DNA of 63,890 nucleotides, the filler included, from Dugesia japonica (Eukaryota), in the NCBI GenBank assembly GCA_001938525.1. It is 6 parts of 6 records of this genome, joined end to end, with 100 filler letters (N's around TTAATTAATTAA, not from the genome) between each part and the next. Parts side by side here need not be neighbours in the genome. Positions count along the whole stretch, not along the records: positions 11,188 to 21,648 come from MQRL01608392.1; 5 more parts are not named here. One strand, given 5' to 3'. Below, piece after piece: positions 9,838-63,050 of the stretch; position 1 is the stretch's first letter, and each line of letters opens with the position of its first letter. The position numbers and the translations under genes were made by a program. The notes below the pieces were generated by a model, which was not told the origin of the DNA, ran no database searches, and was given only the letters and a program-made list of their open reading frames with translations.

Positions 9838-10164
9838 ATGAAAATAAATTTCGAAAGAAGTATTAAATTTTTTACTGTTTTGATTAAATCGCCTAACGTG
9901 TTGAGAATGAAAATTCTACAGGCGTTGCCAACCTATGTTGTTGAGGATTTGGTAGACATTATCAAAGGTTTTGTTAGTGGGAATATAACTACAAGTAGGA
10001 CTCAAAAGGATGCATTGAATAAATATAAAAGACCTATATTATCACTTGTAAATTCAAAGAGTAGAAGATTAACGAGAAAGATTATGCATGATCAAGAAGG
10101 TGGTTTTATATCAGTACTTCTACCAATTTTATTATACTCATTAGACGTGAGTTATCTCGAATAA
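9838..10164 (+). CDS. Polinton/adintovirus-type small basic protein with QxGGF-amphipathic tail (putative virion core or membrane-active precursor)
   Basis: LNKYKRPILSLVNSKSRRLTRKIMHDQEGGFISVLLP resembles the conserved LxKYKxxIRxL...RKIxxQxGGFLxxLL ORF of Polintons/adintoviruses; xGG-F resembles an adenain cleavage site. Confidence 0.6.
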   Translation: MKINFERSIKFFTVLIKSPNVLRMKILQALPTYVVEDLVDIIKGFVSGNITTSRTQKDALNKYKRPILSLVNSKSRRLTRKIMHDQEGGFISVLLPILLYSLDVSYLE

Positions 10165-11087
10165 TGTATGTCCCCGAGCGCCAGACAATGGGGCGCCAAA
10201 ATGGGGTTTGAAATATTTGTATTGTGTATTTTTTGTACCGTTTTAATATGATATCTATCAAGATTGAAGGTTCGTCACTCTCTTGCGGTCAACTTTTTGT
10301 TATGCATTATCAATCTTATTGTATGAATTTAATATTGCTAAACCTAGTCGATAAACTACAGATTTCTTAACCTATGACCAGAAAAATACATCTTATTTGT
10401 ATATCGGCCAATCGGATTGTATGCACAGTGCTATACTAGTGGCCTATTACTGACTACTCGGAAATCGAAAGAGACACAAATATAATCAGATACGCTCAGC
10501 AGTCAGCAGCAACTAAAAGCTTCGCCTGCATCCAGGCTACAAATTCGTTCTGTATTAATCAGTGAGACATAGAAAGTAATCCAAGTTCCAACACATATAG
10601 GAGTGGATGCAGGCAGCTGGGAAGGAACTGGGCTTGACATACTTGGCATCAGATTTGGCAGTGAACTCGTGCATCCCAACGTGTGTGCTGCAGTCGCGGG
10701 CCCACGGCCAGTCACTGTGGTGAACCTTAGACCAGCATTTGTCATAAGAATTTGCTAGAATTACATGCATATTTATCGTCTGTATGAAAATTGACAATTT
10801 TCAAAATTAATTATAGTATTGATATTCCAAAAAATAAATAGTACATAATATTATTTATATAATAATAATAGTCATATTATTCATGTTTGGTAGAAAACTA
10901 AGTGGAGCGCAAAGCTGTAAGATGAAGAAAAATGCTGAGCAAGCAGAAAAGAAATCCAGTGAATTATTCAAAAACTTTTTTAAAAACGCTAAGTCAGACA
11001 AATCTGAGTCAGAATTCATTTTATTTTTATTTCTTTATTTAAAATTAAACGTTTACACCTAACAGTAGTAGTAGTAGTAGTTAGGGT

Positions 11088-11187
11088 NNNNNNNNNNNNN
11101 NNNNNNNNNNNNNNNNNNNNNNNNNNNNNNNTTAATTAATTAANNNNNNNNNNNNNNNNNNNNNNNNNNNNNNNNNNNNNNNNNNNN
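11088..11187. other. Artificial contig-joining linker (44N-TTAATTAATTAA-44N); identical linkers at 21649-21748, 30488-30587, 45712-45811 and 55626-55725
   Basis: The same 100-bp structure with a six-frame stop 12-mer occurs five times. Confidence 0.97.
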
Positions 11188-11189
11188 TA

Positions 11190-13050
11190 TTACTAATTTT
11201 GATGATGTTAGGATTAATAAAACAAACTGGTAGCTTAATAGCATACGATTGTAATAATCCTATCCGATCAAGTATATACTCACTTGTTGATGCGGTAGAA
11301 TGCAATTAGGCCTACCCAGATAAAATAGACGTAATTAAGTCATTTGTGTATAATTATATCTTATTATATCTTATAGAACAAAGGTGAGGGAGTGCTGAGT
11401 TCAAAAAGCGGTGTTTGGATATTATTGTGGAACGCATAGTTATGCCGCTATATTATCACCTAGGCTCATACCACGACCAGTAAGCGTGTTACCAGAGGAC
11501 TGCTTAGATGCTTTTCGAACAGGAAAACTAAAAATTGATAGTAAAGTGACGTTAACAGCAGAAGTCGGAAAGATACTGGCAGAAGCAGTTATTAGAGGTG
11601 AAACAATCAATGAAAACGGTGATTGTACCGGTCCATCAAAAACAAGGCAGAATAATTTGGTAAATCGAGTATTTAATTTAGAAGACTATTCAGTTGAAAT
11701 GAGAGAATATGGAGGAATATTTGATGTGGAGACAGGAAATCTGGTGGGAAATCCACACTGCAATTCAAAGTTTTCTACCTGTCAAACGGGGTTTGCTATA
11801 CTTTTATATGATGAAAGACGTGATTTTTGTGAATTAAAATTATTTAAAAAGCTATGTTTTACTCAAATAAATGGAACTCGAAATAACGTGGAAGAAAAAG
11901 GATCCAGATTGATGGATAATCAAAAGGTTAAAAGGTTAAATAAAAAGCAAGTAGGAAACATGGTTAACAATTTACAAAGAGATGGAATTGAGGAGGAAAG
12001 TACTCCAGTTGTATTAGAATCAACTGATCCCAAGGGTGCAATACGATTTTTTAAGAAAGCTTCCACAACGAAATGCACTCATCTTGTCTACGAAACAAAT
12101 TATAAAGGTCTATATTTGGGGAAAACGAATATTCCTAAATCAACACAATTAAACGCTAAAGATATAAAAATGACAAATTATGTAAACAGCAATATTGATT
12201 ACGCCTATAATAGTTTGTTGTTTCAAATGAACGAAAAGTATCAAGAGATAACCTTGAACGACTGCAAATTGAGTGAAGAAATAATTAAAAATCGATTAGC
12301 AATATCGATAGTGAATCCTGATCTTGTTACTCCAATGTTGTCAGAAAAAGGAGTATTTGGAAAGATTATGGGAGAGGTAATATACAGCTATAATTGCGCA
12401 CCAGTAGATGTGTCGTTAGCTAACTTTAACTAATGTACAATAGATTTGCCAGTTGTTTGTGAAAATAAATTGAGATTCATGAGTCCAGTAACTCATATGT
12501 TATTAAATGAAAATGTGAAGCCACCGGAATCAGTATGTAATCCTGCAATGTCACCACTATACAAGACTTATGATCATTGGATTTCCTTGCCTGACAGGAA
12601 ACCGGCATCAAAACAAGTACAAACTTTAGATATATCATCTCTGTCCAAAAAAATAAAATTTAAAACAATGGATGAATTAGCTAAATAAGGAATATATACA
12701 GCTGAAGATAACGAGCAAGCCAGAAAAATGATGTAGTTCCTACATACGAGAAAAAGGGTATATCAGAGATAATCAGAACAGTTTATCAACAAAATGAGAT
12801 TCATCCTAACTATAAGTTATTGTTCGGGCCAGAGCACTATAAAGAAGCTGCCAGGAATGTGGCAAAGAGAATTTGGGGAAAATTTAGTGCATTTGGAGTA
12901 TTTATATCAAGTCTAGCTGGTATTTATGTTATTTGTGGGTTGGCAAAATTGGTATTTACACAAGTATTGTCGACCTATAGTATATTCAAAGTGGATGCAC
13001 ATGGGATTTGATGGTTGATTTCTTCCCGTTTTGTGCTAAATTTCTATTAT
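11190..13050 (+). pseudogene. Chuvirus-like (class III fusion) glycoprotein/env, with stops and frameshifts
   Basis: Hydrophobic leader then LIAYDC; YCGTHSY; DCLDAFRTG; GDCTG; GEVIYSYNCAPVDV; CTIDLPVVCENKLRFMSPVTHML; CNPAMSPLYK..HW; GIYT; TM segment WGKFSAFGVFISSLAGIYVI. Motif order is typical of chuviral G. Confidence 0.75.
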
Positions 13051-13065
13051 TTAAGCATCATCATT

Positions 13066-13560
13066 ATGAGATATTATCGCAAATTCATTCGAAACTTCTC
13101 AACATTAGCTTTTCCATTAACTCAATTAGAAAAGCTAGGAGTAAAATTCATTTGGGAGCTAGAGCAACAGAAAGCTTTTGAGGAGCTTAAGAAGCTGTTG
13201 ACATCTGCACCAATTTTGAGATACCCAGATTTCGAAAACCAATTTATAATAATGAGTGATGCTCGCAATAGAGGTATTGTTGCTGTGCTAGGTCAATTAG
13301 ACGATAATAAAAACGAATATGCAATAGCATATGCGAGCAGAGGATTGAAACCTCACGATAAAAACTACGCGGTTGTTGAATTGGAAACATTAGTAATATT
13401 TGCTATTGATATGTTTTGACATTATCTGTGGGGTAGAAAAATCGTTATACTTACTGATCACAAACCATTACAATGGTTAATGAAGCACAAAAACGACTTT
13501 TTAAGATTGATTAGATGGGCACTTAAATTACAACCAAACGATATTGAGATAACTTACCGG
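13066..13560 (+). pseudogene. Ty3/Gypsy RT thumb/connection and RNase H fragment
   Basis: YYRKFIRNFSTLAFPLTQL, FIWELEQQKAFEELKKLLTSAPILRYPDF, IAYASRGL, YLWGRKIVILTDHKPLQWL, RLIRWALKLQ. Confidence 0.9.
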
Positions 13561-14699
13561 ACCATGTACATATCAATCATGTCTGCTAGGAAAATGGCCA
13601 ATTTATTCGACATGTTTCCAGAAATAAAACATGAAAATAAAACATCCGAAATGTGGATTCACTGCATAAATAAGCCTTATGTGGTTTTAATTGCAGGCAC
13701 CAAAGGTCCTATATATTTGGACAAATGCACCACCTTAGAAATTAGTCATGGTGATGGAAGAGAGAAACGTCTATCAAATCAAAGCGAAAAAGATGGCACT
13801 ATGATAGTAGTAGAAATACTAAGCATAGTCAAGCTACGAGTAACCTTTTCGGTTAACTAGCCGTTATGGACTTATAACGTTAACATGAATGACATGAAAA
13901 CTTTAACGCCGTTTGTTCGTTTATCATTGACGCAGCTCCAAGAAGACAAGCTAACTTGCTTTGTTGCTGCACATTATTGTACAACAAGAGAAAATTTTAC
14001 TCCCGCTTTGGTAGCTGTTAGTTAACATTATAATCACCTCCAGACAACCTGTTAAGCATTATCAATCACACACATGGCTTACAAGAAGAGCAAATTCGTG
14101 GAAATTGAGACGAAGAAGACGCAAAGGTGGAAATCAAAAAATTTCTGGATGGGCGAATTCTAGTAGGAATTGTAGAGATATACAACGGAAAAAAGTTAAT
14201 CAAACCGCAATAATTGACGGCAGCCGTTCTAAGAGAACTATTCAACTTAAAGGATGAGAATATATAAAGTCCTCCATAGTTTATGTGGATAAAGAGACTA
14301 GAAATCTTTTAGTTTTTTCCTACAACTTCGCAACCAGATCAAGCAAACTACCATGAGTCATACCGAATCCTAAAACACTATCCAAGCTCCTCCAAGCAAA
14401 TTTAAAAAGAAGAAACATTCTCAATCTGGTCCTAGAATCAGTAAGTAGTAAAAGTTCTGATAGTGAGAGCCATAGCGTTTCTAGCTCCTTGCGTTCTTCA
14501 TTGAAGCCAATTCAACCCAACAATTATACCAATCCAAAATGGGAACCATAGCTGTAATCAGCTACTACCGTTTGCCATTATCCTTATTTACAGACATTTA
14601 TTTTTAATGAAATTAAAGTGTATTTATTATTCAAGCGGTGTAATCTCTGACTTTATTATTATGTGTTTATCATTAAAATTACTTGAATGTAGATATTTT

Positions 14700-14765
14700 A
14701 GTTTTTGGGACAAAAATATTTTTTTGGAGATAATATGTTAGGGTTGTAAGCTAGGCTTACAAATT
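14700..14765 (+). mobile_element. Possible PPT / 3' LTR start of the env-bearing Gypsy element
   Basis: GGGACAAAAATATTTTTTTGGAGATAATA followed by TGTTAGGG at 14736. No second LTR is visible. Confidence 0.3.
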
Positions 14766-17429
14766 ATTAAGTTTAATTTAACTTTATTTATAAATTTTAA
14801 TAATTGATTTGTTCAAAGGTTATATATATATATTAAATTAGAATTTATTTATAATTACAAAACAAAATAGTAAATATTATTTTAATTAAATAAAAATAAA
14901 AATAAATCTTTTATAAAAATTACTTATTTTAGATATTGGGATTTTAAATATTAATGTAAATAGAAATTACCATTTTTGGTAAATAACAATACACAAAATC
15001 TACGCATAATTTTTATGTAAATTTTTTGTCAACAAAAGAATAAATGCATAATTTTATGCAAATTTACCATTTTCGAAAATGTTATAAATACTGATTTTCA
15101 AATTAGTGTAACAACACAAAAAAATTAGAAAAATTTTTAAAGCTAAATAGCAGTTTGGATTTCTTAACAATAAGTTTCATGCTAAAAATTATTAGCAGTT
15201 TTAGGTAAAGTTTGTCTTGAATTCATTTAATTTATTGAACAAATATAAATCTGTTAAGGATTATTATTTGTCTCACTTTTAATAGTTATTTTGAGGTAAT
15301 ATTATAGTGATATATTATCTGTTGATTTTTTAAAATTTTTGCTCTAAATTACTCTTAAATCTATTACGTGTGATGAGGAAACTTAGGCCCACCATTCATT
15401 ACTTAACAGAACGGTATTGTAATACCTGTATTTATCATTCTATTAAAGTCACTATAGAGCGGTTTTCGCAATTCTTAAAATTAATCAACTCTTGTGCAAA
15501 TTGTAATTTTTATTTGTAAATTATATTTGATTTATTTTAATAAAGTTATAAAATAAAATCGTGTTCTTTTAGTTTTTTACTATTATTATATTATTATTTA
15601 TCTATAATAAAATCACCTGCATGCATATTTTTAAAGTAAAATTTGGAGTCAGTAAATAAATTGTTATTTCTTACCCACAAGATCTAACAGTAGCAATAAA
15701 ACTAATGACCGTGACTCTAGCATTGACCAGAAAATTTCAACCAGAATTCTAACGATGATAATACGGACGGAAGCTGTACTAGCGCATAAAAGTAATACTA
15801 ATCCCATCAGTAATAATAATAACTATAGTACTATAATTATAACAAAGTTTGAAAGTAATCAGGATTATAATAATGTTATCGTATTGATATTTAGTAATAC
15901 TGATAGAAATTTAGTCAAAAATTATGATTTTAATAATGGTATCAGTTGTAAAATAGAAAAACGCAAAAATAACAATTTATAACTAAACAATGACGTTAAA
16001 GATTTGGATAGTAATAACAATAATATTAATAATAATATTCACTATAAGGATAATTGTATTAATAGGCGTCTCGCGCGACACACAACAATGCAAAATATCA
16101 CATATCTCAACTTGGCTACCTCATCCAATTGCATATCATTGCATGCATTTCGTATTCCATTATAAAAACAGTTATCTTATTTAGACTGCTGTCTAAAATT
16201 ATTCCCTGAAACTTCACTTCTCCCTGTATGATTGCTGATCTGGTAGTCATCCTTTACAATCCGAATCTTTACCTGAACGAAATATCTCGATAACATTTAC
16301 TTAAACGAATTCAATTTTAAGAAATTAATTATTATCCTTAACAATTTCTGTAGTTGCATAATCTTAGTATGCTTGCAAATTAATTTCTATATCTTTAAAA
16401 CAAGTTTTTCTTTTATCGTTATCTCACGGATTCATTTTTCATTATTTTATTTTTCATCGTTTCTGAAAAACGTTTTTACTATATCATCTACTCACACAAA
16501 TTCTCTTACATTACGTTCAAGTATATTAATTAGATTTATTTCTTTCAGACTTTTTTTCTATCATTTTCTTAAAAAATTCTCGTTTTCATTATTTACTTAA
16601 ACACACTTTTTTCTTATTACTTTATTAAACAACTAGAATGTGCGTAGGAAAAAAACATTTACAGAAATTTGTTTGAATTAAATTTTATTAATGCACCTCA
16701 TTTTTGTCTTTTCGTGTTTTTCCTTAGAACTTTCTCAAAAGATCTTATTTCCATGGTATTAATGCCTTCCATTTGCTCTCTTTCTTTCTATTATCCAAAG
16801 AAACCTCGTGACCCTTTTGATTTCCCCACAAATCAACCGCCTTATTTGGCACATCAATTTCTTCAGGAAGTTGCTTGATTATATTCACCATCATTTATTG
16901 ATATTCTTCGACATCAGCTGCATTCCATCTGCTCTCGTTTTAATCATTTTATTAAAGTCGTATCTTTGAGGTTACACGCGGAAAACTTCATTTTAGACTA
17001 CGTTGTTAGTGAATTCTATGTCGTATTTCAGCAACTAGTCCTGCTCGTGTGAATGTGAAAATTTCCCTTTAATATTATCGCCGTTGCAAGCACGTATGAC
17101 AGCGACAAATAGTTAACCGTGGTTGAATACTGGAACCTGTAGGTTAATTCCCACCATTCCATATCTTCTGTATTATCTCGCAAACCAAGAGATCGATGCC
17201 TTTAAGACCTTCCTTAGGCAACATCGTGACTTCATCGATAATGATAAGCGTTGCATCACACAAAATTGAAGCATCGTTTGATACCAAACGCATCGACGAA
17301 ATGTAATGTCCAGAAGAGAAACGGGGAGTTTGAAACTACTATGAACTGTTCTGCTTCCTTTCAAAAGTATCGCTACAATTCCGATTGTTGCAAATGGAAG
17401 GGAAATTTGATAAGAACCTCGCACGAATG

Positions 17430-17603
17430 GCAAAGACGTCATATATAGGAAAGTATTCCCGCCATCTGTGTAAAATAATTCAGGAACATAATCAGTTAGG
17501 TAGTTGCAGTAATATTGCAGAACATAATATTCAGTGTAAATCAGTGATAAATAATAAGAATTTGAAAATTTTTTCTAGAAATTTCAAAGATTATTTGGAG
17601 AGA
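17430..17603 (+). pseudogene. GIY-YIG endonuclease fragment (Penelope-like element)
   Basis: SYIGKYSRHLCKIIQEH...SNIAEHNIQC matches YIGxTxRxLxxRxxEH...SxIAEH. Confidence 0.7.
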
Positions 17604-19385: not shown

Positions 19386-21181
19386 CTATTCGGCAACATC
19401 TCCTCCTCCAATCTTCTGTTTCTTGGTTCCAGACAAAATATCATCGATTCGTAAAATCAGAATTGAGGTTTCGATAGCTGTTTTCAGAACCTGCGCTCGA
19501 ACCGGCAGAGGATCCCACACGCCCAACTTCTTCATGTCAACAATGGCGCCCTCCTCTCCATCAACACCGATACTCCAATTGTTTGCCGGATCAACAGCGT
19601 GTTTCGCTCGCAACTCGGTGATCAATCTCAGCACTTTAGCACCACAATTTTGGGCCAAAGTTCTTGGAATAACTTCCAGAGCGTTAGCAACACTCAAATA
19701 AGCATTCTGTCTTACTCCGACGATATTCTGGGCTTTCTGTGTCAAATGAGCTGAGATCGCCATTTCCAGAGCTCCTCCGCCGGGAACAAGAGTATTTTCC
19801 ACCATCACATTTCTCGCAACCGACATCGCATCTCCAAGATTTCTCTCGATCTCGTTCAACACATCTTTACTGCTACCTCTCAAAAGAATCGAGCAAGCTT
19901 TCGGATCTTTACATTCAGTGATAAATGTGAAATATTCATCACCGATCAATTTGATTTCGAACAATCCCGCTCCGGTTCCGATATCTTCTTCTTTCAATTC
20001 GTCGATATTACTTACAATGCTTGCACCGCAACAACGAGCTACTCTCACGTTATCGGTTTTTCTCAATCTTCGAAGAACAGTAATATCGGCCTTCACGAAA
20101 TAATGTTGAGCTAAATCGGAAACACCTTTTTCTGTGATAACGAGATCTGGTTTCATTCTGATAATATCTGCGCATAACTTCTCAACATATTCCTCTTCCA
20201 ATTGTAGCGCTCTCAACATATCGGATTCTTTGGTGATTTCAATCGATGTCTGAGATTCTCCTTTTTTGTATTCGATACTCAAATCCAATAAAAGTATTCT
20301 CGGATTTTCAATACGGCGTCTCATTCGAGGATGAACAATATCTTTATTGAACATAACTCCACTCAAAACAACAGAATCTTCTATTGTACCACCGGGAATC
20401 TTTTCAATTTTCACATATCTTTTTATATCTATTTCTTTTTTACCGTTTTCTTCTGTTGCTACTTTTGTTACTGCGTCAATAGCGATTTTACAAGCGAGAT
20501 CTGACCATTTATTTATGAATTTAGTACCCAAACAACTCTTGATAACGTTTAACATTTCATCACGATTTTCTGAATTAATCTTAACACTAATAAATTTATA
20601 ACTTATAACTAATTAGTTTAAATAATACCTGCAATGTGATCGCATGTATTCTAAAGCATCATCGAGAGCTTCTCTGTAAGCACTAATAATTTTAGTTGGA
20701 TGAATTTTTTCTTGCAATAACCCAGTCGCTTGACTTAACAATTCTCCAGCTAAATATTTACTTAAATTTGAAAATAACTTTTAAGTTTTCACCAAGTATT
20801 ATAACAGATGTTGTACCATCTCCACATTCTTCATCTTGTGTTCTTGCAATTTCTATCATAGATTTCGCTGCTGGTTGTTCAACGGTTATCTAGTAAAATA
20901 GTTATATTGGTAAAATATTCAATTTAAAGTACTTCTCTCAATATGGCATTTCCATCATTAGTCATAACTATTCCACCAGTAGGACTCATGAGCATTTTCA
21001 ACATTGCTCTTGGGCCTAAGCATGTTCTAATAACGTCAGCTACATGTTTAGCAGCAGAAATATTTTGTTCCTGAACTTTTTTCCCTTGTAAACGCTTGGC
21101 GTTGGAGTCTTAAATAAACAATAAATATATTTGCTAAAAACAAAATTCCTTACTTAAAATCATAACAGGCATTGCACTCAT
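19386..21181 (-). CDS. CCT3: T-complex protein 1 subunit gamma (CCT3); exons 21181-21154, 21108-20933, 20889-20793, 20749-20629, 20586-19386; 540 aa
   Basis: Spliced [25 protein letters not shown]...[12 protein letters not shown]...[10 protein letters not shown]...GDGTTSV...EYKKGESQT...LRIDDI. Four GT-AG introns (45, 43, 43, 42 bp) join in frame to 1623 nt. Confidence 0.96.
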
Positions 21182-33515: not shown

Positions 33516-36500
33516 AATGTCTACAATCAATAATGTAAATCCAGTCAATCCAGCAAATTCAGTCATTCCAACAAATTCAGTCATTCTAACAAATTCAGTC
33601 ATTCTAACAAATTCAACCATTCAAGACAATCAAATCTACAAAGTTATTCAAAAAAGTCGTAAACGAAAAGGATCACCAACAGCAGCTTCATCATCATCAA
33701 AACGAAATTGTAATTATCAGAAAATGACCGTTATTATGAATGGGAGTCATATAGAGCTTTGTTTTGATGTCACTAGAAATAACACTCAAGAAATTATGCC
33801 ATTAAAAAGGTATGTGAGGAAGCAGAAAAACTGAAAAATTGTTAATTTGTTCACGGGCTTAAAATTCAATTTGAGAATCCGGAATGTGAAACAAAAGAAT
33901 GTCACGTTTCACTTCGTGCAGTCGAATATGAGCCGAATTTCATAAACAATATCTCACCAGTCTTAGCTGAAAAGGTACAAAATTATAGTGAAATGGGAAG
34001 CGGTTGGAAAATGGTAAAGGTAATACAATATTGTTTTAAACTAATAAAAATCCGTCCAATCCCATATTTTTCCGGCCGAATTTATATCAAATCTCCAGAA
34101 TCATTAATGCTACCATCAATGTTAAAAATGACAACAGCATTTTGGCAGTAGAAAAATATTCATTTATAAATCATCATCGCAAAAGAGTTACCAACTATGT
34201 TCCATTCTTATCAGAGTTAAATAATTCTATGGAAGAAATGCCAATGAAAAAAAAACATTTGAAAATTTGAACGAAATAATTTAGAGTTGGCTATTAATAT
34301 TTTTAAATATAATAATGAAGTGGATATCATCAAAAATCCCTACATTGACATCTTATATAAGAGCAAAAATGAAGATGGGAGAGAAATTAACTTGCTCCTC
34401 ATCAATAGAGAAGGGTAACAATTATAATTACCTTGCTTTTATAAATTTGGACAAGCTACTCAATATGAGAGATAAAAAAACTGAATTAGAATTCAATATC
34501 AATTTTGGTGTCGCAGATTTTTACACGGATTTCGATATCAATTGGGTTATGACAAACACTTACCCCTCTGTGATTCACACAATACATTAACCACGTTATA
34601 CAAAATGCCAAATCAAAAATATTGCGAATTTTTCGATTATTCGAAGACCATCAGCCCACCATATATTATTTATGCTGATTTTGAGTCAGTGTTGGAGCCG
34701 ACAGAAGTCTAGGAAAACTTTCATATGCCAGCATCAGCGGGTTTGTTACTTTTAGGACCAGATGGATCGAAAAGTTATGAGGAACAATCTGGTCAAGATT
34801 GTATCTGTCACTTTTATCAGCCTTGAATTCTATTGTAAAAACCAAGGTTTGCACATAGTACAAGAATGCTAAAGTGCAAATGTTGCCTCTATCACACGGA
34901 GAACAATATGCTTTCGATAATGCGACAGAATGTTATTTATGCTAACAAATTTCATCAAAATATGTAAGAGAACATTGTCATGCAAGTGGGAAATTTCTTA
35001 GAGCGGCATGTAACAAATGCAACATGAGCAGACAGAACAGATGGATGCTACCAGTATTTTTTCATAATCTAAAAGGATATGATATGCATCATATTCTGAA
35101 GCATCCTATCAACAAATTTCCCGCTTACAATTTAAATGTTATTCCACTAACAACAGAAAAATTTTCAACATTTACTGCCTACATCAAGATGGAACAAGGA
35201 AAAACGGTTTCAATCAGGTGTCTCGATTCTTACCAGTTTTTATCAGCGTCATTAAAAACTCTGGCTTCAAATTTGCAAGAATTTCCAATCACTAAAACAG
35301 CATTTTCAGATATCGTTATCAAAGGTAAAGGCGTGTTTCCATACACACTTGCTTAATCATTCAACGATCTCAAATCAATCAAACAGTTACCGGCAAAATG
35401 GGACGATATATCTGATGCAGAGTATAGTGATGCTATTCAAGTAATGAATCAGTACAAATGTGTCAATCTCCTGCAATATATGCTAATTTATATTTTTCAA
35501 CAATTCAGAGTGCAAGTTAAACAACAAGATAGAATGGAAGCAGCTAACTTCGTTTCTATACCGGCTTTAAGTTGGGCAATAGGTATAAAAACATGCCCAC
35601 TCATAATTGATTTACTACAAGATCCGGAAATAAATTTCTTTTTCCAGACTGGCATAAGAGGCGGAATGACCTTTGTCAATTAACACAGGGTCATAGCAGA
35701 TGAAACAACAAGTCTGCTCTATATCGATATCAACAACCTCTATGGCTGGGCATTGAGTCAACCATTGCCATATACTGATTATAAATGGATAAATAATGAT
35801 GAAGAGTTGAAGATTCTAATTGATATGTTGCCATATTTGAATATTGAAAAGGAAGAAAATGGACTTGTTTTCGAAGTAGATTTGTCAATCCCTACAGAAG
35901 AACACGATAAGCTGTATCAACTACCTCTTGCACCGATTAATCAATGTCCACCGGGAAGTAAAGTTAAAATATTGCTTTTAACTCATGAGACCAAGAAAAA
36001 TTTTATTATCCATTATCGCCTACTACAGATGTTTATCAAATTGGGAACGAAAGTTGACAAAGTTCATTGTGCAGTCTCATTCAATAAAAGCTGCATTTTA
36101 AAGTCGCTTATCGAATTCAACTCAGAAAAGCGGGCTCAAGCCAATAATGCCTTTGAAAAAAGACTTTTATAAGTTAAAAAAACAACAGTCTTTAAGACAG
36201 GACTGTTGAAAATCTTATGAAAAGAATGAATTTAAAGCTATGTAACAATGACAAAAAGCTGCTTACCTATGCTTGCAAACTGCAATTCAAGGATTCAGTA
36301 GAAATTTGCGATAATTTAGTGGTGGTTCTAATAGATAACACTAGATAGACCGTCATACATTGGTTAAGCAGTTCTTGATTTATCAACGCTGCGTATTTAT
36401 AACCTACAATATGAGGACTTGAAGTCCTATAGTGAAATATTTATCTGCGAAATTAAAATCGTTGCAGGTGATCGGATAGCTTTTTCCTCGAATGTAAAAA

Positions 36501-45811: not shown

Positions 45812-47215
45812 CCCAAATTTGGAATTAATTTAGATGAATCAACTTTACTTAGCAATAATTCATGTTTTATTGTATATATATACTAGATCAGTTAATAAAG
45901 ATGACACATCCAGAAAACTTGTTTTTGCATTTGATTGAATTTTCATAGACAAAGTGCTGAATGTATATTTATCACTCTATTAGCAGAATTAAATATCCTT
46001 GGATTAACTGAAGCTATTTTACAAGATTGTCTTATTTCCTTAATTTGCGGTGGTGCTGCTGTTTTGCTAGGACGTAAATCTGGAGTTGCTAAATTGCTTC
46101 TGGAAAAGTACCTTAATCTTATAATAATAAGATTAAAAACATTACTGGTGTTAATTATCTTAGAACAATTGTTGAAAAAATACGTACGCTATATGCTTCT
46201 TCTCCTAAGAGCCAACGAGAACTAAAAGCATGTTCGCAATCATTTGATCAGTCTCTATTAAAAATTGAATGAATTGTAGATGTTTGTTGGGTTTCATCCT
46301 CTTTGAAAACCGTAAAAGCACTCTGGGTAGATTAACCTGCTTTATTTAAGCATTTTTTTAAAGCTTAAAGAGGCAAGAAGAGACGAATACGAAATGACTA
46401 AGTTTAGCGGATTAGCTTTGAAAGTAACATCAATTGCTTCTGTTCAGAACTTGTATATGATGCCATGATGGACCTATGGAATTTATCTTTAAAACTGGAA
46501 GAAAGAAAATGTACAATAATTACATCTCTCCGGGAAATATGTTTACAAGTTCGTATTTTTGAATCCATAATAGATCAACTAGGAAGGCATTAGTCCGAAA
46601 CAATAGCGGCAGTGCAAAAGAAAACGTTTCGTGGTGTTGAACTTGTAATTGGGAATAAAACAAACTTGGTCTTCGATTTATAGGAGTTTGGACAATAACC
46701 TTCTCTCAAGAATGTTTGTAATTAGACACAATGATACAAATTAATCTAAAATAAAGTATAATAATTATAGTATGTAGCCTGTAATTAAGAAATGTGGCAT
46801 ACGGTACAGCGAAGAAGAGGTCTGCTTGTTCTCACAAAGATTTAATATAAATCGAGAAACTGCAATAAAAGATTTTCGAACATTCATAAATACGACTGGC
46901 AGTAAAATTTATACAAATTTAAATCAACATTTTACAGTAATAACTACAATAGCAATTTCAAGTGCAGAATGTGAACGAATATTTTCAGCTATGAATTTAA
47001 TAGTAACACCAACATGTTCGTCTTTATCGACTAGAACTTTCTCAAATTTGCTATTTATAAAACATTTTGGTTCTCCACTTACTTTTTTTTATCCCAAAAG
47101 GTATGTTTGCAGTTGGCTAGCCAAAGGAAAACATAGCGCTCTAGACACTCAATCGAGATCTAGGAGTGCTAAAGTATATGACGAAAATATGGAAAAAATA
47201 TGGAATTTATTATAA
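45812..47215 (+). mobile_element. Degenerate hAT transposase, KIAA1586-like family
   Basis: INLDEST; GGAAVLLGRKSGV; C-terminal dimerisation domain AISSAECERIFSAMN...SNLLFIK..GSPL..F.P..YV.SWL..GKHSA. Confidence 0.85.
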
Positions 47216-56049: not shown

Positions 56050-59000
56050 TTCTAAAATGAATGTTTGTTTGACGATAAAGAAGTTAAAAAGGAAATAAAA
56101 ATGCGAGATATAGAAGATGTTGAAAAAAGGAAAGAAGTTATAATTAAAATTGATGGATTGAAAAAAAGAAATAGAACCAGAACATGGAATATTAGCATTG
56201 AAGAAAAAGGTAACATATGCAACCGTAACGCATAATATTCCAAATTCACATAATCGATTTAATAAACCAAGATTCAGTGGAAATTTAAATAAAAGTAAAA
56301 ACTATGAGCAGAAATATGATTCCAAGATATATCGAAGAAATACCCGAAATTTTACGAGAGGAAACTATGAACCCAATGTTCAGACTTTCAGAGTGAGAAA
56401 ATGTTGGGAATGCAGAGAAGAAGGTTACATACGCTCACATTGTCTTAATGTTAAATGTTCGTATTGTAAGAATCCGGGAAATCTTCGATTTCAATGCCAG
56501 GAAATTAATCCTTTGAGATCTGAAAGAAGACAAATGTACAACAAGCCACAAAGATTTCAAATGAATGCCTATGATGTCGATGATAATGATGATGCCTGTC
56601 CCAGTGGTGGAGTAGATTAAGGAGATTATTCGAGAAANGCCAAAGCTCTGATGAGGGAGGATGCAATTGGAGCTATAAATCTAGGTTAGATAATAATGTT
56701 TTGAAGGCTAATGTATATGATATGAATGCTTGTGAATGTTTGTATGATGTAAATAATAAAAATTATAAAAAAATTGAATGATTTAGTTTGTTTGAATGAA
56801 TGTAAATATTTTTCGATTGATGGTTTATTTAATAAAACTTTAGAATATAAAAAATGAATATTTTATAGGTAATATGGTAATTCCCAATGGTGTTTCAGTC
56901 TTAAATAAGGACTTAAATAATGCGAAATTAAAAAATAATTATGAAGATGAGATTGTGTATAATAAAATGTCACGAAGATTTTGTTTAAAGTTAAAGTTAA
57001 ATGAATGTTGATTAAATTAAATGTTGATTGTTTACTTGATACTGGCGCTAAGATTAATGTGATTGACCATGCAATATTTTTAAAATTAAATATTACTAAA
57101 ATTAAAAGTGAATATATTAATATTACTTGTTCTAATGAAAGTCAATTAAAAATAATAAGAAGTATTATATTAAAGGTTACACTAATAATCAAACAGAATA
57201 CATAAGGTTTTATGTTGCAGAAAATATTTCTCCCAGTGTTATTGCAGGAATTGATTTTCTATCTAAATTTAATATAAAATTAAAAATGCTAAATTATATT
57301 GATAAAGAAATAAATGAAATAAAACTATGAACTTTAAAAATGAAGTGAATACAAGGATTAGTGATATAATTGAATGGTTTTCAGAAATTTCTATGAAAGA
57401 TAAATGGGATGTAGGTAAGGCAACTCTATTAAAACATGAAGTTGTTACTCACGGTGGTCCAGTTGTAGCAAATCCTAGGCGACAACCTATCCATTTAGAA
57501 GATAAAATTAATATGGATATTTTAGAAATGGAAAAAATGGTATAATTAAACAATGTGATTCTGAGTGGAATAGTCCATTAGTTTGTGTTTAGAAGAAAGA
57601 ATAAAAAGACATTAAAATCTTTTTGGATTTTAGATTAATGAATATTATAACGAAGAGACCACTGTTCCCAATACCAAATAAAGGAGAAATGCTTGATATT
57701 TTAAATGGATAAAAATTTTACAACGATAGATTTGGGTAAAGCATATTACCACGAATAATAAGAAGAAAGTTCAAAATACAAAACGACATTTTCCACAAAG
57801 TTTGGTCAATTTTGCTTCAACCGAATGCTTTTTGAAATAGCTGCAGCACCAGCAACATTTCAAAAATTAATGACCAATAAATTGGAAGAAAGCAATTGTT
57901 TATTTTGATTATATACTGATATTTTCTAAAACTGAGAAAGAGGATACAAAAGATTGGAAAATGTTTTTAATCAAATCAAAAATTCAGGTTTAAAATTAAG
58001 TTCTGATAAATGTGTATATATGAAAAGTGAGATTAAGTTTCTGGGCCATATCATTTCAAAAGATGATTTAAAAACATATCCAGAAAAGATAAGAGCAATT
58101 TTTAACACCCTAAGTGTTTGAAAAAACCTCGCGGATTGTTAGGGCTTACAAATTACTACAGAAAATTTATAAGAGATTATTCAAAACACTCCAAGTTAAT
58201 AGAAAATTTATGTGGAAAAAATAACAATAAAAATTAATTTGATCAAACCAATGTAAAGAAAATTTTAAAGAATTAAAACTAGAATTAATGAAGGCTCCTT
58301 TACTGATTTATCCAGATTTATCCAAAGAATTCATACTAGATACATACGATAGTTTTGACACAATTGGTGGAGTATTATCACAGTTAGATAAACAAGGCAA
58401 TGGACGGGTTATAGCTTATATATCAAAAGCAATGAGTAAGCATGAATTAGGTTATTGTATAACCAGAAAGAAGCTTCTAGTAATATATTATTTTAAGAAA
58501 CAGTATAAACACTTCAGTCCTCGTAAAAAAACTGTTCACCCCTATAAAAAGGCAACTTTTAATAAACATTTCGATTTAGTCTAAACTAATTGTTTAAATA
58601 TTTATTTATTGATAAATTATTTAAATAATGTAAGTTATTATAATTTATCTTTTATTGATGTAAAATGACATGGTTTAAGAACAATATAATGTCTAGAAAT
58701 TTAACAGAATTTCATAGAAATGCAAAGTCTTGGACAGAAATAGCTCGTGAATTACGTCAAAAGTACAGCAACACTGTGACAAAACGTGGAATGCAATATC
58801 TATGGAAGATATATCGGAAAATGGGATACGTGCGAGATAAGATGAGAAATGGCAGACCAACTATTGTTTCACCCCAAGCTTCACGAGCTATAACACGCGT
58901 TTGCAAAGCCAATCGCTTATTATCTGTTCATAATATCACCCATACGTACAATACAAGTGCTGTCCAAAATGTTTATGTTATTACTTTTCAGAAAATTCTG

Positions 59001-61100
59001 AACAAGTACAGTTTTCGAAGTTATTCAGCAATTAAGAAGCCATATTTGAAATTGCATCAACGTCTCAGAAAACTTTCCTGGGCCACGACTTACAGTAGTT
59101 GATATGCAGATAAATGGGGTGATGTTGTATTCAGAGACACTTGTATCTTTCAGTCATATTCGTCATCAAGTAAATTATTGATTCGAAGAACCTCATTGGA
59201 AAATTACAATCCTACCTTTATCCAAGTAGTTATGCAACATGGTCCATACATACATGTCTGGGGCTGCTTCAACAGTAATGGAGTTGGACTTCTGAAAAGA
59301 ATCAATGGAAATANNNNNNNNNAGAAATATCAAAAAGAGATACTTCATGATATAGACATAGTTGGTAAATGCTTAGTCTTTCCAAAAGCAGCATTCGTTT
59401 TAAAACATGATTTGGCTCCTCCACATAAGGCAAAAAGTACCCAGGCTTTCCTAAAAAATAGAAATATTGATGTATTACCTTGTCCAGGTAATTCTCCTGA
59501 CCTGAATCCCATAGAAAATATTTGGGGTATCCTTAAACGGAAAGTAAGACCAATGATAAACAATATTTATACCGGAAAAGATTTAAACTTTGAACTGATT
59601 ACAAAGCCATAACATTTATGATTAATACAAAAAAACCAAATTCTCTAAAATTCCAGACATGGATTAGTTATATAAGTAGTTTGGATATGATTATGGAATA
59701 TAAAAAGGGAGAATGTCATTTAAACGCTGACGCAATGTTGAGGAATAATTGCAACACGTGCATTCAATGTCAAATGAATCATGAAAATGCGAAAAAAGGG
59801 AAAATGAAAACAAAGGTCTTAGCAATTGAGCATAAAACAAATGGCAATAAATGGAAAGAGAACTCTGAAGAAATTAATACTACAAAAGGTTACTTAAAAA
59901 ATGATGAAATGAATTCAAAATTTAAGTTTTCAAATGGTATAATAATGACAAATAATAATAAAATTTGGATTCCTTTAAAATGCAATTATTTGTTAGAAAG
60001 GAACACGAATCATTATGCCATATAGGATCTCAAACATTGGCAGCTCATATAAGAGAAGATTACGATATGGAAGGTTTAGAATAAATGGTAAAAGAGGTTA
60101 CTCAAAGTTGTAAAGATTGTCAATTAAGAAAAACACAGAATACTCAAACAAAAGAAAGAATTATTAGTGTTCCAGCTGATGACATCTTTGAAATCATTCA
60201 TATTGATTTTTGTGGTCCGTTTAAGAAAACAATTTATGGAAAACAATACATTTTAGCTATAATTGATACATTCAGTAGATTTATATCTCTTAATACAGTT
60301 TCACATCAAGATGAAAATACCACTGTTACGATATTAAAAATTAATTGGATTTTGAAATATGTTGCACCGAGAATAATACATACAGATTGTGGAAAATCAT
60401 TTGAATCAAATCTATTTCAACAATAAGCTAAGAAATTTAATTGTGAAATCCAATACTCTAGTCCATATCATTATAGTATTAATGGAATAATTGAAAGACA
60501 ATTTCGAACTATAAATGATACAGTTCATATTAGTTTACTGGACAAGAAAAAGCAGGGCTGGGCTGAAGTTTTACCAGAAATAGAATTTATGTTGATCTCC
60601 ACAATTCAGAAAACGACGAATGCAGCTCCAGCTGAAATAGTTTTTGAGAAATATTTACACAAAGAATGGATAGTTAAGAATGATAAAAACAATGTAAATG
60701 AAAGAAATCTATGGCGTAAAAGAATAATAAACAATTTAAATAACTATGAAAATTTCAAAAATTTAGAAAAGAACAATACAGTTAGAAAATTTATTATTGG
60801 TGACGAAGTTTGAATTAAAAGAGAAAGTCCACATAAAAATAAAAACAGATATGAAGGACCAGCAATAATTATAGAGAAAATACATGATAGGAGTTTTAAA
60901 TTAGAACTTACGAATGGTAAAAAAATTATAAGAAATATTGAATGGTTAAAACATTTTAAAATGGGGGAATGTGAGATATGACTAATAATATAATATATCA
61001 TATTGACCTATATATAAGTAAATCGACATATGTATGTGATAATAGGTGAATGCGCGATTGACTGTTTGAATGCGTGTATGATTTTAGTGCTCAGACATTA
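56050..61100 (+). mobile_element. Decayed Ty3/Gypsy LTR retrotransposon (gag-PR-RT-RH-IN, PPT, 3' LTR start at 60970)
   Basis: Two CCHC-like knuckles (about 56402, 56456); LLDTGA; WNSPLVCV, IDLGKAYYH, FLGHII; RNase H RVIAYIS; integrase IHIDFCGPF, IHTDCG, NGIIER, YEGPA; GGGGGAA then TG at 60970. Confidence 0.93.
58515..59555 (+). mobile_element. Tc1-family DD34E transposon (right end missing) inserted in the Gypsy RNase H
   Basis: Left TIR-like CAGTCCTCGTAAAAAAACTGTTCACCCC; GRP motif; VWGCF; HDLAPPH...SPDLNPIE with 34 residues between D and E. The RNase H frame resumes (YLY.KRFKL.TDYKAITF) at about 59564. Confidence 0.9.
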
Positions 61101-62199: not shown

Positions 62200-63050
62200 A
62201 TATCTTTTCTTACTGATTTATTTGTTTGTTCCTCTCTTGTTCTGAAGACTTCTACTTTGAGATGTTGTCATCTTGTCATACTTGTTGACGTTTAGAATGT
62301 GTTTGATCTGATTATAGTTTTTCTATATTACTTGCTGACATTTTTCACTTGTTAAGATATAATTCAACCCACTTTTACTTGAAATAATAATGAAGAGTCT
62401 GATAAATCTTTGACCAAATTCTTCTTGTGCTCGTTTCTCACTATTAATCGATCTCTCACATTTATTTTCTTATNCCATCTTGTTCTATCATACTTGTTTG
62501 CTCTTCTATGGCTCCTTGTTTCTATAATCTTTTAAATATAAGCTAGTCATAACTTATTGTCTGAGCCTCATGGTTTTTAGAAATATCGCAAATTTGTAGC
62601 CTTGGTTTAGAACCAAATATAATTTCATACGGTGAATACTTTCATCACATCAAATAGTGCTTAAATTTAAGCACAAACGTGCAAATAGAGAATAGATCTT
62701 TACAATATTAACGCTGACACTTTGTTTAAGATTTACTAGCATAAGCAATAACGTTTTCTTCATTATCTTGAATCTTAGATAAAACAGCTCCTATAAAGTT
62801 GTAGAAAGAATCTGTATCTTAAATATACTCACCATTTTCTCGAGGTAGACATAACGTTGTTGTTGAAATCAATTAGCGTTTGAATTCATAAAACGATGCT
62901 TTTCTTTGCTCTGACCATTCAAACGTAATTTTATTTCAAAGAGCGAAGATAACTCAGCAGACATTGCCGCATAATTTCTGAAGAATTTTATGTAATAGTA
63001 GAAGATTTCTAATAATGTCTCTAGCTCCATTTTACAAGACGGTAGTTCTA
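62200..63050 (-). pseudogene. Possible highly decayed non-LTR (APE endonuclease) remnant
   Basis: Weak motifs VNIVKIYS (IxVYAP-like) and QIKHIL (QIDHIL-like). Confidence 0.25.

Follow-up and report, generated by a model that had tools for sequence, protein, structure and literature searches.

A decayed Ty3/Gypsy copy carrying a gB/chuvirus-type env gene before pol in Dugesia japonica, in which env and RNase H most likely meet through an internal deletion

We wanted to know how a gene for a virus-type fusion glycoprotein has come to lie directly against the RNase H of a Ty3/Gypsy retroelement in Dugesia japonica. The locus lies in a 63,890-nucleotide stretch of joined parts of assembly GCA_001938525.1 (hereafter the window), an AT-rich, gapped animal scaffold with many transposon remnants. 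Elsewhere in the window, we noted a host gene for CCT3 (TCP-1 gamma) that has a single long exon, at 19386-about 21000 (minus strand), a second decayed Gypsy pol at 57330-60810 (RT at 57330-58106, RNase H at 58162-58584, integrase at 60085-60810) that is interrupted by a Tc1/mariner transposase at 58659-59609, and a third Gypsy RNase H remnant at 62651-62923 (minus strand). A decayed protein-primed type B DNA polymerase at 34946-36172 (PF03175, E 3e-11), of which a 153-nt repeat lies at 4-156, is suggestive of a Polinton/Maverick element, and a PIF1-like helicase fragment at 17173-17574 (minus strand; E 5.2e-7) is suggestive of a Helitron remnant; a fragment of a hAT transposase dimerisation domain is found at 46778-47215 (E 2.5e-5).

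The env gene occupies 11190-13072 on the plus strand in four frame segments, which were translated with X at stops before Pfam matching. The N-terminal segment (11190..11354) carries a signal-like hydrophobic stretch and the first part of the ectodomain and is 29-39% identical to relatives; it is followed by a class III ectodomain of the gB/chuviral G type (11375..12760), by the membrane-proximal region with the transmembrane (TM) helix (12739..12993), and by a tail (12993..13072) whose frame differs from those of both the TM helix and RNase H. Pfam family PF24664 (Monjiviricetes_fusion) covers env in three segments, at profile positions 8-47 (E 0.019), 255-494 (ectodomain, E 5.6e-47) and 523-585 (E 1.2e-8) of 653, and the ectodomain has weaker matches to BDV_G (E 9.7e-5) and herpes gB (E 0.0012). 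The TM-like stretch lies at 12889-12945 (hydropathy 2.05 over 19 residues). The gene thus runs from the hydrophobic stretch at 11190 to the TM helix, as expected of the near full-length glycoprotein that the original prediction had described. A profile built from 90 env relatives matched 43 PDB sequences, 42 of which are herpes gB (best E 7.4e-5), and a phmmer search of the PDB with the window env ORF alone gave weak matches, 12 of 13 to herpes gB (E 0.46-1.5). An AlphaFold model of the stop-free part of env at 11399-12430 (pLDDT 89.4) matched glycoproteins of Jingchuvirales and related negative-strand viruses with E values down to 5e-13 and 13-17% identity in structural alignments, then herpesvirus gB (E 6.4e-4, 8-13% identity), GP64 and thogotovirus GP; its TM-scores against the PDB were low (0.2-0.3), because the model is a fragment of the protein. 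The chuviral and herpesvirus proteins share the class III fold and PF24664 with the window env, and a fold search had been proposed as the check on this assignment. A single-sequence structure prediction (pLDDT 32.9) was left aside, and an ESM Atlas search with env yielded no usable lead (first match 0.82). We conclude that env is a class III fusogen of the chuvirus/gB type, and we regard this call as sound.

The partner of env, at 13072..13563 on the plus strand, is the thumb/connection region of a Ty3/Gypsy RT together with RNase H (PF17917, E 3.1e-29; PF17919, E 1.2e-27), with Ty3 RT as the best PDB match (residues 297-461 of 478, E 1.2e-16). These matches agree with the Gypsy identity proposed at the outset, and the endogenous retrovirus-like character, a chuvirus/gB-type env with a Gypsy pol partner, likewise stands. 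The remnant starts at about residue 297 of Ty3 RT, and the fingers and palm are therefore absent. RNase H carries one stop, at 13417. No protease, YxDD or H2C2 motif was found in any of the six frames of 11188-15700, scanned with the usual patterns for these motifs. The copy is a remnant and not an autonomous element. Membership in BEL/Pao was considered and ruled out by the Ty3/Gypsy-type RNase H.

The frame at 12820-13011 had been read as continuing through one TGA into RNase H. We found that the TM helix, the TGA at 13009 and RNase H do share one frame, but env does not end at this TGA. When 153 proteins were compared with 12700-13200, 14 matches of at least 18 bits started at 12960-13030, 13 of them in the frame of 12993, and the tail motif G-x-x-W-x-L...P is invariant in 5 of 5 aligned relatives. 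The env tail leaves the TM frame near 12990, so that the TGA at 13009 is out of frame; in its other frame, the tail crosses 13009 and runs on to about 13072. The true junction is a 3-nt overlap at 13070..13072 on the plus strand, where the env tail is joined to the RT thumb and where protease and the RT fingers and palm are absent. The in-frame join of env and RNase H is thus incidental and results from a frame change in a copy that has decayed. Further decay is evident throughout env, which has five stops, one in the N-terminal segment (11307) and four in the ectodomain segment (11396, 12431, 12686 and 12734), and three frame changes (near 11355-11375, 12740-12760 and 12990). In total, the copy has six stops, three frame changes and two missing blocks, and in its present state it can yield neither a complete Env nor a fusion of Env with RNase H, nor an active RT. 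TGA readthrough is ruled out by the env tail in the other frame and by the upstream stops and frame changes.

The junction was mapped with contigs of four public DNA-type runs from three studies. Among the matches listed, contigs diverge from the window before 13070-13072 in all four runs and behind 13072 in two of the four. In one run (X7), two thumb contigs are unjoined, with depths of 846 and 169.8, the deeper of which departs from the window over 33 letters before 13072, and a third contig (13035-13128, 1 difference, depth 12.9) bridges the junction; it is the sole bridging contig among the matches listed, which are the best 32 of 398 pieces, so that there is at least one such contig, and depth does not equal copy number. 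The joined form may therefore be rare or even single copy, which this partial set of contigs and their depths suggest and do not prove. The bridging contig also bears on whether the joint is an assembly chimera of two repeat copies, as might be feared of a high-copy repeat in a draft assembly with many gaps, one of them ending 2 nt before env. The contig was assembled separately and extends 35 and 56 letters to either side of the junction with its single difference, and we consider a chimera exceedingly improbable. The run with the bridging contig is perhaps related to the source of the window, so the junction is real DNA that is not thereby shown to be widespread. Over 11190-14800, each run yielded about 1,000 related contig pieces, mostly less than 95% alike to the window, and the element family is thus abundant and diverged in this flatworm. 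Neither a contig spanning the whole element nor an intact parent was present among the public DNA runs examined, and in one poly(A) run, of which one quarter was read, 46 reads matched, none of them at least 95% alike to this copy.

The gene order of relatives indicates what the copy has lost. An exhaustive protein search with env found 237 relatives, of which the best 150 were listed and 20 long ones were chosen for analysis of domain order (word-index searches, which are insensitive compared with the exhaustive search, gave one distant protein at near length and none among longer ones). In 10 of the 20, env is followed by protease; five of these extend across RT and RNase H, four of them as far as integrase, and P0152 and P0275 are two further complete cases of the order Env-protease-RT-RNase H-integrase. 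Gag signatures precede env in P0003, P0019 and P0030. In none of the 20 does env follow integrase, and the assumption that env normally comes after integrase does not apply to this lineage. The nearest relatives are single Env-protease-RT-RNase H-integrase polyproteins, and env before pol is therefore the native arrangement. Most of the long relatives are gene calls and possibly spliced models, and P0057 is visibly mosaic; P0011 (HBK71150.1) is an NCBI record of 2,627 amino acids from a 9,084-bp contig with a bacterial annotation, which speaks for a single Env-Pol ORF without splicing. Compared with P0014, P0011, P0275 and P0006, the window is short of about 560, 590, 790 and 880 residues, respectively, between the env tail and the thumb. 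The order of env before RNase H, for which the original prediction had weighed a real architecture against deletion or recombination, thus has two sources: env before pol is native, and the direct contact of env with RNase H most likely results, as had been thought probable, from a deletion.

Several features of the long relatives deserve mention in their own right. P0011 is filed under a Flavobacteriaceae MAG though it is an animal-type Env-Pol retroelement, which is likely due to eukaryotic contamination of the bin. In P0003, P0005, P0006, P0012, P0152 and P0275, at least two aspartyl protease-like domains lie between env and RT. P0006, P0011, P0017 and P0152 extend 600-1,700 residues beyond integrase; by eye, this part seems to hold a second hydrophobic signal stretch, to which P0006, P0011 and P0152 add another TM helix, possibly as parts of a second membrane protein; these distal parts have no mutual BLASTP match beyond the integrase C-terminus and a protease-like repeat and may be gene-model artefacts.

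To judge whether the two halves belong together, we compared their relationships. The window RNase H is 43-55% identical to the RNase H of seven Env-Pol polyproteins and 32-36% identical to the other two Gypsy RNase H sequences of the window. Trees of RNase H and of env share the split that unites the window with P0275, P0011, P0014, P0152 and P0006 (support 95/98 and 91/94), the RNase H tree being made up solely of env-bearing relatives and the two other window sequences. In a larger env tree (FastTree, 60 of 101 qualifying rows), the window falls into a 21-row clade (support 99) that holds all seven Env-Pol polyproteins and is separate from stand-alone G proteins of 650-750 residues. A joint made by recombination or nested insertion between an unrelated env donor and an env-less Gypsy element might be imagined in a window so rich in nested repeats, beside a downstream stretch (13564-14735) that has no assigned identity. 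Against it stand the closer identity of the RNase H to Env-Pol polyproteins than to its Gypsy neighbours, the placement of env and RNase H in the same six-member group, and an even GC content of 0.34-0.35 over 11190-14735, and we hold such a joint to be very unlikely.

The same comparisons bear on the proposal that a Gypsy lineage independently captured the glycoprotein of a negative-strand RNA virus. Retroelement Env proteins among the top matches listed are 29-38% identical to the window env, the matches to PF24664 and in the env tree are mostly retroelement-borne proteins, and an IMG/VR pattern scan, which detects close relatives only, found no relative of env. The viral glycoproteins, at only 13-17% identity, speak against a recent capture, and with the main split shared between the two trees, an independent capture is not indicated. 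A recently captured chuvirus G, fused to RNase H when the TGA is read through, would fit the best viral structural matches, which are chuviral and related G proteins, and the shared frame of TM helix and RNase H with one stop between them; against this, viral identity is low, retroelement Env proteins are nearer than viral G and the env tail lies in another frame. Moreover, with the upstream env stops and frame changes, no G ectodomain can be made. We regard this account as largely refuted and give it next to no credence. A recent chuvirus EVE was likewise rejected, the nearest relatives of the window env being retroelement Env proteins and not viral G. As to the host, CCT3 at 19386-20612 (minus strand), for which parasitic flatworms are among the best full-length matches, falls into a clade of 12 rows, 10 of them named flatworms and one a further row (100/98), so that a flatworm host is likely; this is a tree of one gene with a long branch, built from 35 of 120 listed matches with no free-living flatworm included.

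Behind RNase H, the match of the pol part to relatives ends at 13560-13563, where the relatives continue to integrase, and a second deletion is therefore likely. The stretch at 13564..14735 (plus strand) has many related contigs and is a multi-copy region, likely the post-integrase part of the element; its GC content of 0.347 is like that of the coding part. It has no Pfam match, integrase included, in any of six frames, does not match the C-terminal extensions of the relatives, and an ESM Atlas search with 13570-13857 gave no usable lead. Two deletions that both spare env and RNase H could also mean that the env-thumb-RNase H form spreads as a non-autonomous subfamily that lacks protease, RT core and integrase and is mobilised in trans; the joined form is present as DNA in public run X7, and P0068 likewise has G directly before a Gypsy RNase H, without RT. 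P0068, however, belongs to another env clade, and its structure may reflect a faulty gene model or a deletion of its own, the depth of the bridging contig (12.9) is small beside that of the unjoined thumb contig of the same run (846), and both env and RNase H contain stops. We thus think a subfamily of this kind unlikely, and we attach the same low weight to a spreading subfamily with an unrecognised post-pol accessory gene, which as a satellite would supply fusogen to an infectious retroelement or interfere with it.

The ends of the element are less clearly marked. A candidate 3' LTR of the TG...CA type with a 6-nt terminal inverted repeat was read directly from the sequence at 14736..15689 (plus strand); a T run and a short purine-rich tract come before it, and its GC content drops to 0.20. 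No second copy of it is found within the window, so the candidate is unpaired and unproven. Upstream, an assembly gap at 11088..11187, in which 44 N stand on either side of a 12-nt linker, would contain gag and the 5' LTR, if present. Related contigs extend upstream of 11196 in three of three DNA-type runs, and no gag-like sequence was found at 10101-11086. The opening 8-mer of the candidate 3' LTR is present at two places in the window, 14737 and, after an AGT microsatellite, 11080 (0.49 occurrences expected; 6 of 100 shuffles reach two, in a post hoc test), so that 11080..11087 (plus strand) might be the first bases of a 5' LTR at the gap edge, which hints weakly at a 5' LTR and gag inside the gap. 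Upstream of the gap, the stretch 10460-10760 is richer in GC; each of its strands has frames that are partly open, and Pfam gave no convincing match.

A Gypsy element with an env of this type had been taken as new. Elements of this kind are already published across animals: the accessible part of Chary and Hayashi (eLife 2026; PMC13524379) describes 1,512 Ty3/Gypsy elements that carry env. In many of them env is of the HSV/gB type, which the authors link to the Chuviridae-like glycoprotein found on BEL/Pao elements of mosquitoes; they also state that elements of Nematoda, Bryozoa and Platyhelminthes bear only HSV/gB-type env, in the order GAG-ENV-POL. According to the same parts of that paper, 114 gypsy elements with a chuviral-type env occur in arthropods and six elements, with 1-215 copies, in Schmidtea mediterranea; its genome table gives ENV hits in ENV-POL versus POL-ENV order as 253 versus 4 for S. 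mediterranea and 5 versus 0 for D. japonica, and a role of Env in cell entry is described as untested in this class outside Drosophila F-type elements. The window copy has a gB-type class III env with a signal stretch and TM helix, located upstream of pol on the same strand both here and natively in relatives, and its host, by the CCT3 grouping, belongs to one of the three phyla named. The order of protease, RT, RNase H and integrase with a catalytic RT is present in the relatives and lacking in the copy, and its stops, frame changes and missing blocks place it outside the intact-ORF inclusion rule of the class. The copy derives from this class but would not count there as an intact member.

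The closest published element in the accessible supplement is Smed_errantivirus_4 (PMC13524379), which shares with the window a Ty3/Gypsy pol, a gB/chuvirus-type env before pol and a flatworm host. Counted by eye from 11387, the window env is identical to the Smed_errantivirus_4 row at 81 of 165 ungapped positions, with all seven cysteines shared; P0057, which is sister to the window env in the tree (support 100), carries two 10-residue motifs that each occur once in the supplement, both in this row. Published elements of this type are intact, whereas the window copy is without protease, RT core and integrase and has stops and frame changes. About half of the residues differ, and the window copy therefore represents a related family and not that element; this family may be among the unannotated hits of the same study (PMC13524379). 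In mosquitoes, the BEL/Pao elements named Anakin, with many defective copies, carry a chuvirus-like glycoprotein (Dezordi et al. 2020, PMC7642597); judging from the available part of that paper, they have the same broad fusogen family on an LTR element but differ in their BEL/Pao pol and insect host. A 2023 follow-up (PMC10084718) reports, in its accessible part, no clear case in insects of a Gypsy element that captured chuviral G. Our own literature searches found no further account of planarian env elements beyond the 2026 study and no match for gag-env-pro-pol or NERV elements. By its title, the work of Sacco et al. 2022 in J Gen Virol reportedly deals with nematode non-canonical Metaviridae in which a metavirus captured an RNA-virus glycoprotein, and these elements are said to have a continuous gag-env-pro-pol ORF. 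Their hosts are nematodes, in contrast to the flatworm here. It is this work (doi 10.1099/jgv.0.001739) that PMC13524379, in its accessible part, cites for the flipped ENV-POL order.

Overall, we conclude that the locus is very probably the decayed remnant of a multi-copy Ty3/Gypsy element whose gB/chuvirus-type env stands before pol, and that the contact of env with RNase H in this copy most likely arose by internal deletion. The intact parent would make a Gag-Env-Pol or Env-Pol polyprotein, whose signal stretch and TM helix would send the Env ectodomain into the secretory pathway while protease, RT and integrase would stay cytoplasmic; the polyprotein would presumably be cut by signal peptidase and by the element's own protease, and a trimeric class III Env could, from what is known of the family, allow particles to pass into adjacent cells. 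A deletion with a 3-nt overlap, by microhomology repair or template switching, would then have removed roughly 1.7-2.6 kb with protease and the RT core, a second likely deletion near 13564 would have taken out integrase, and later point changes would have broken env. A caution follows, as deletion and frame change in decayed gag-env-pol copies can mimic a novel env-RNase H fusion. Whether Env serves cell-to-cell spread, and whether genes passed from virus to retroelement or in reverse, is better asked with intact elements. The finding adds one family to the class described from 2022 to 2026: an abundant Gypsy family with a gB-type env in this flatworm, about half diverged from the nearest planarian element in the accessible published record.
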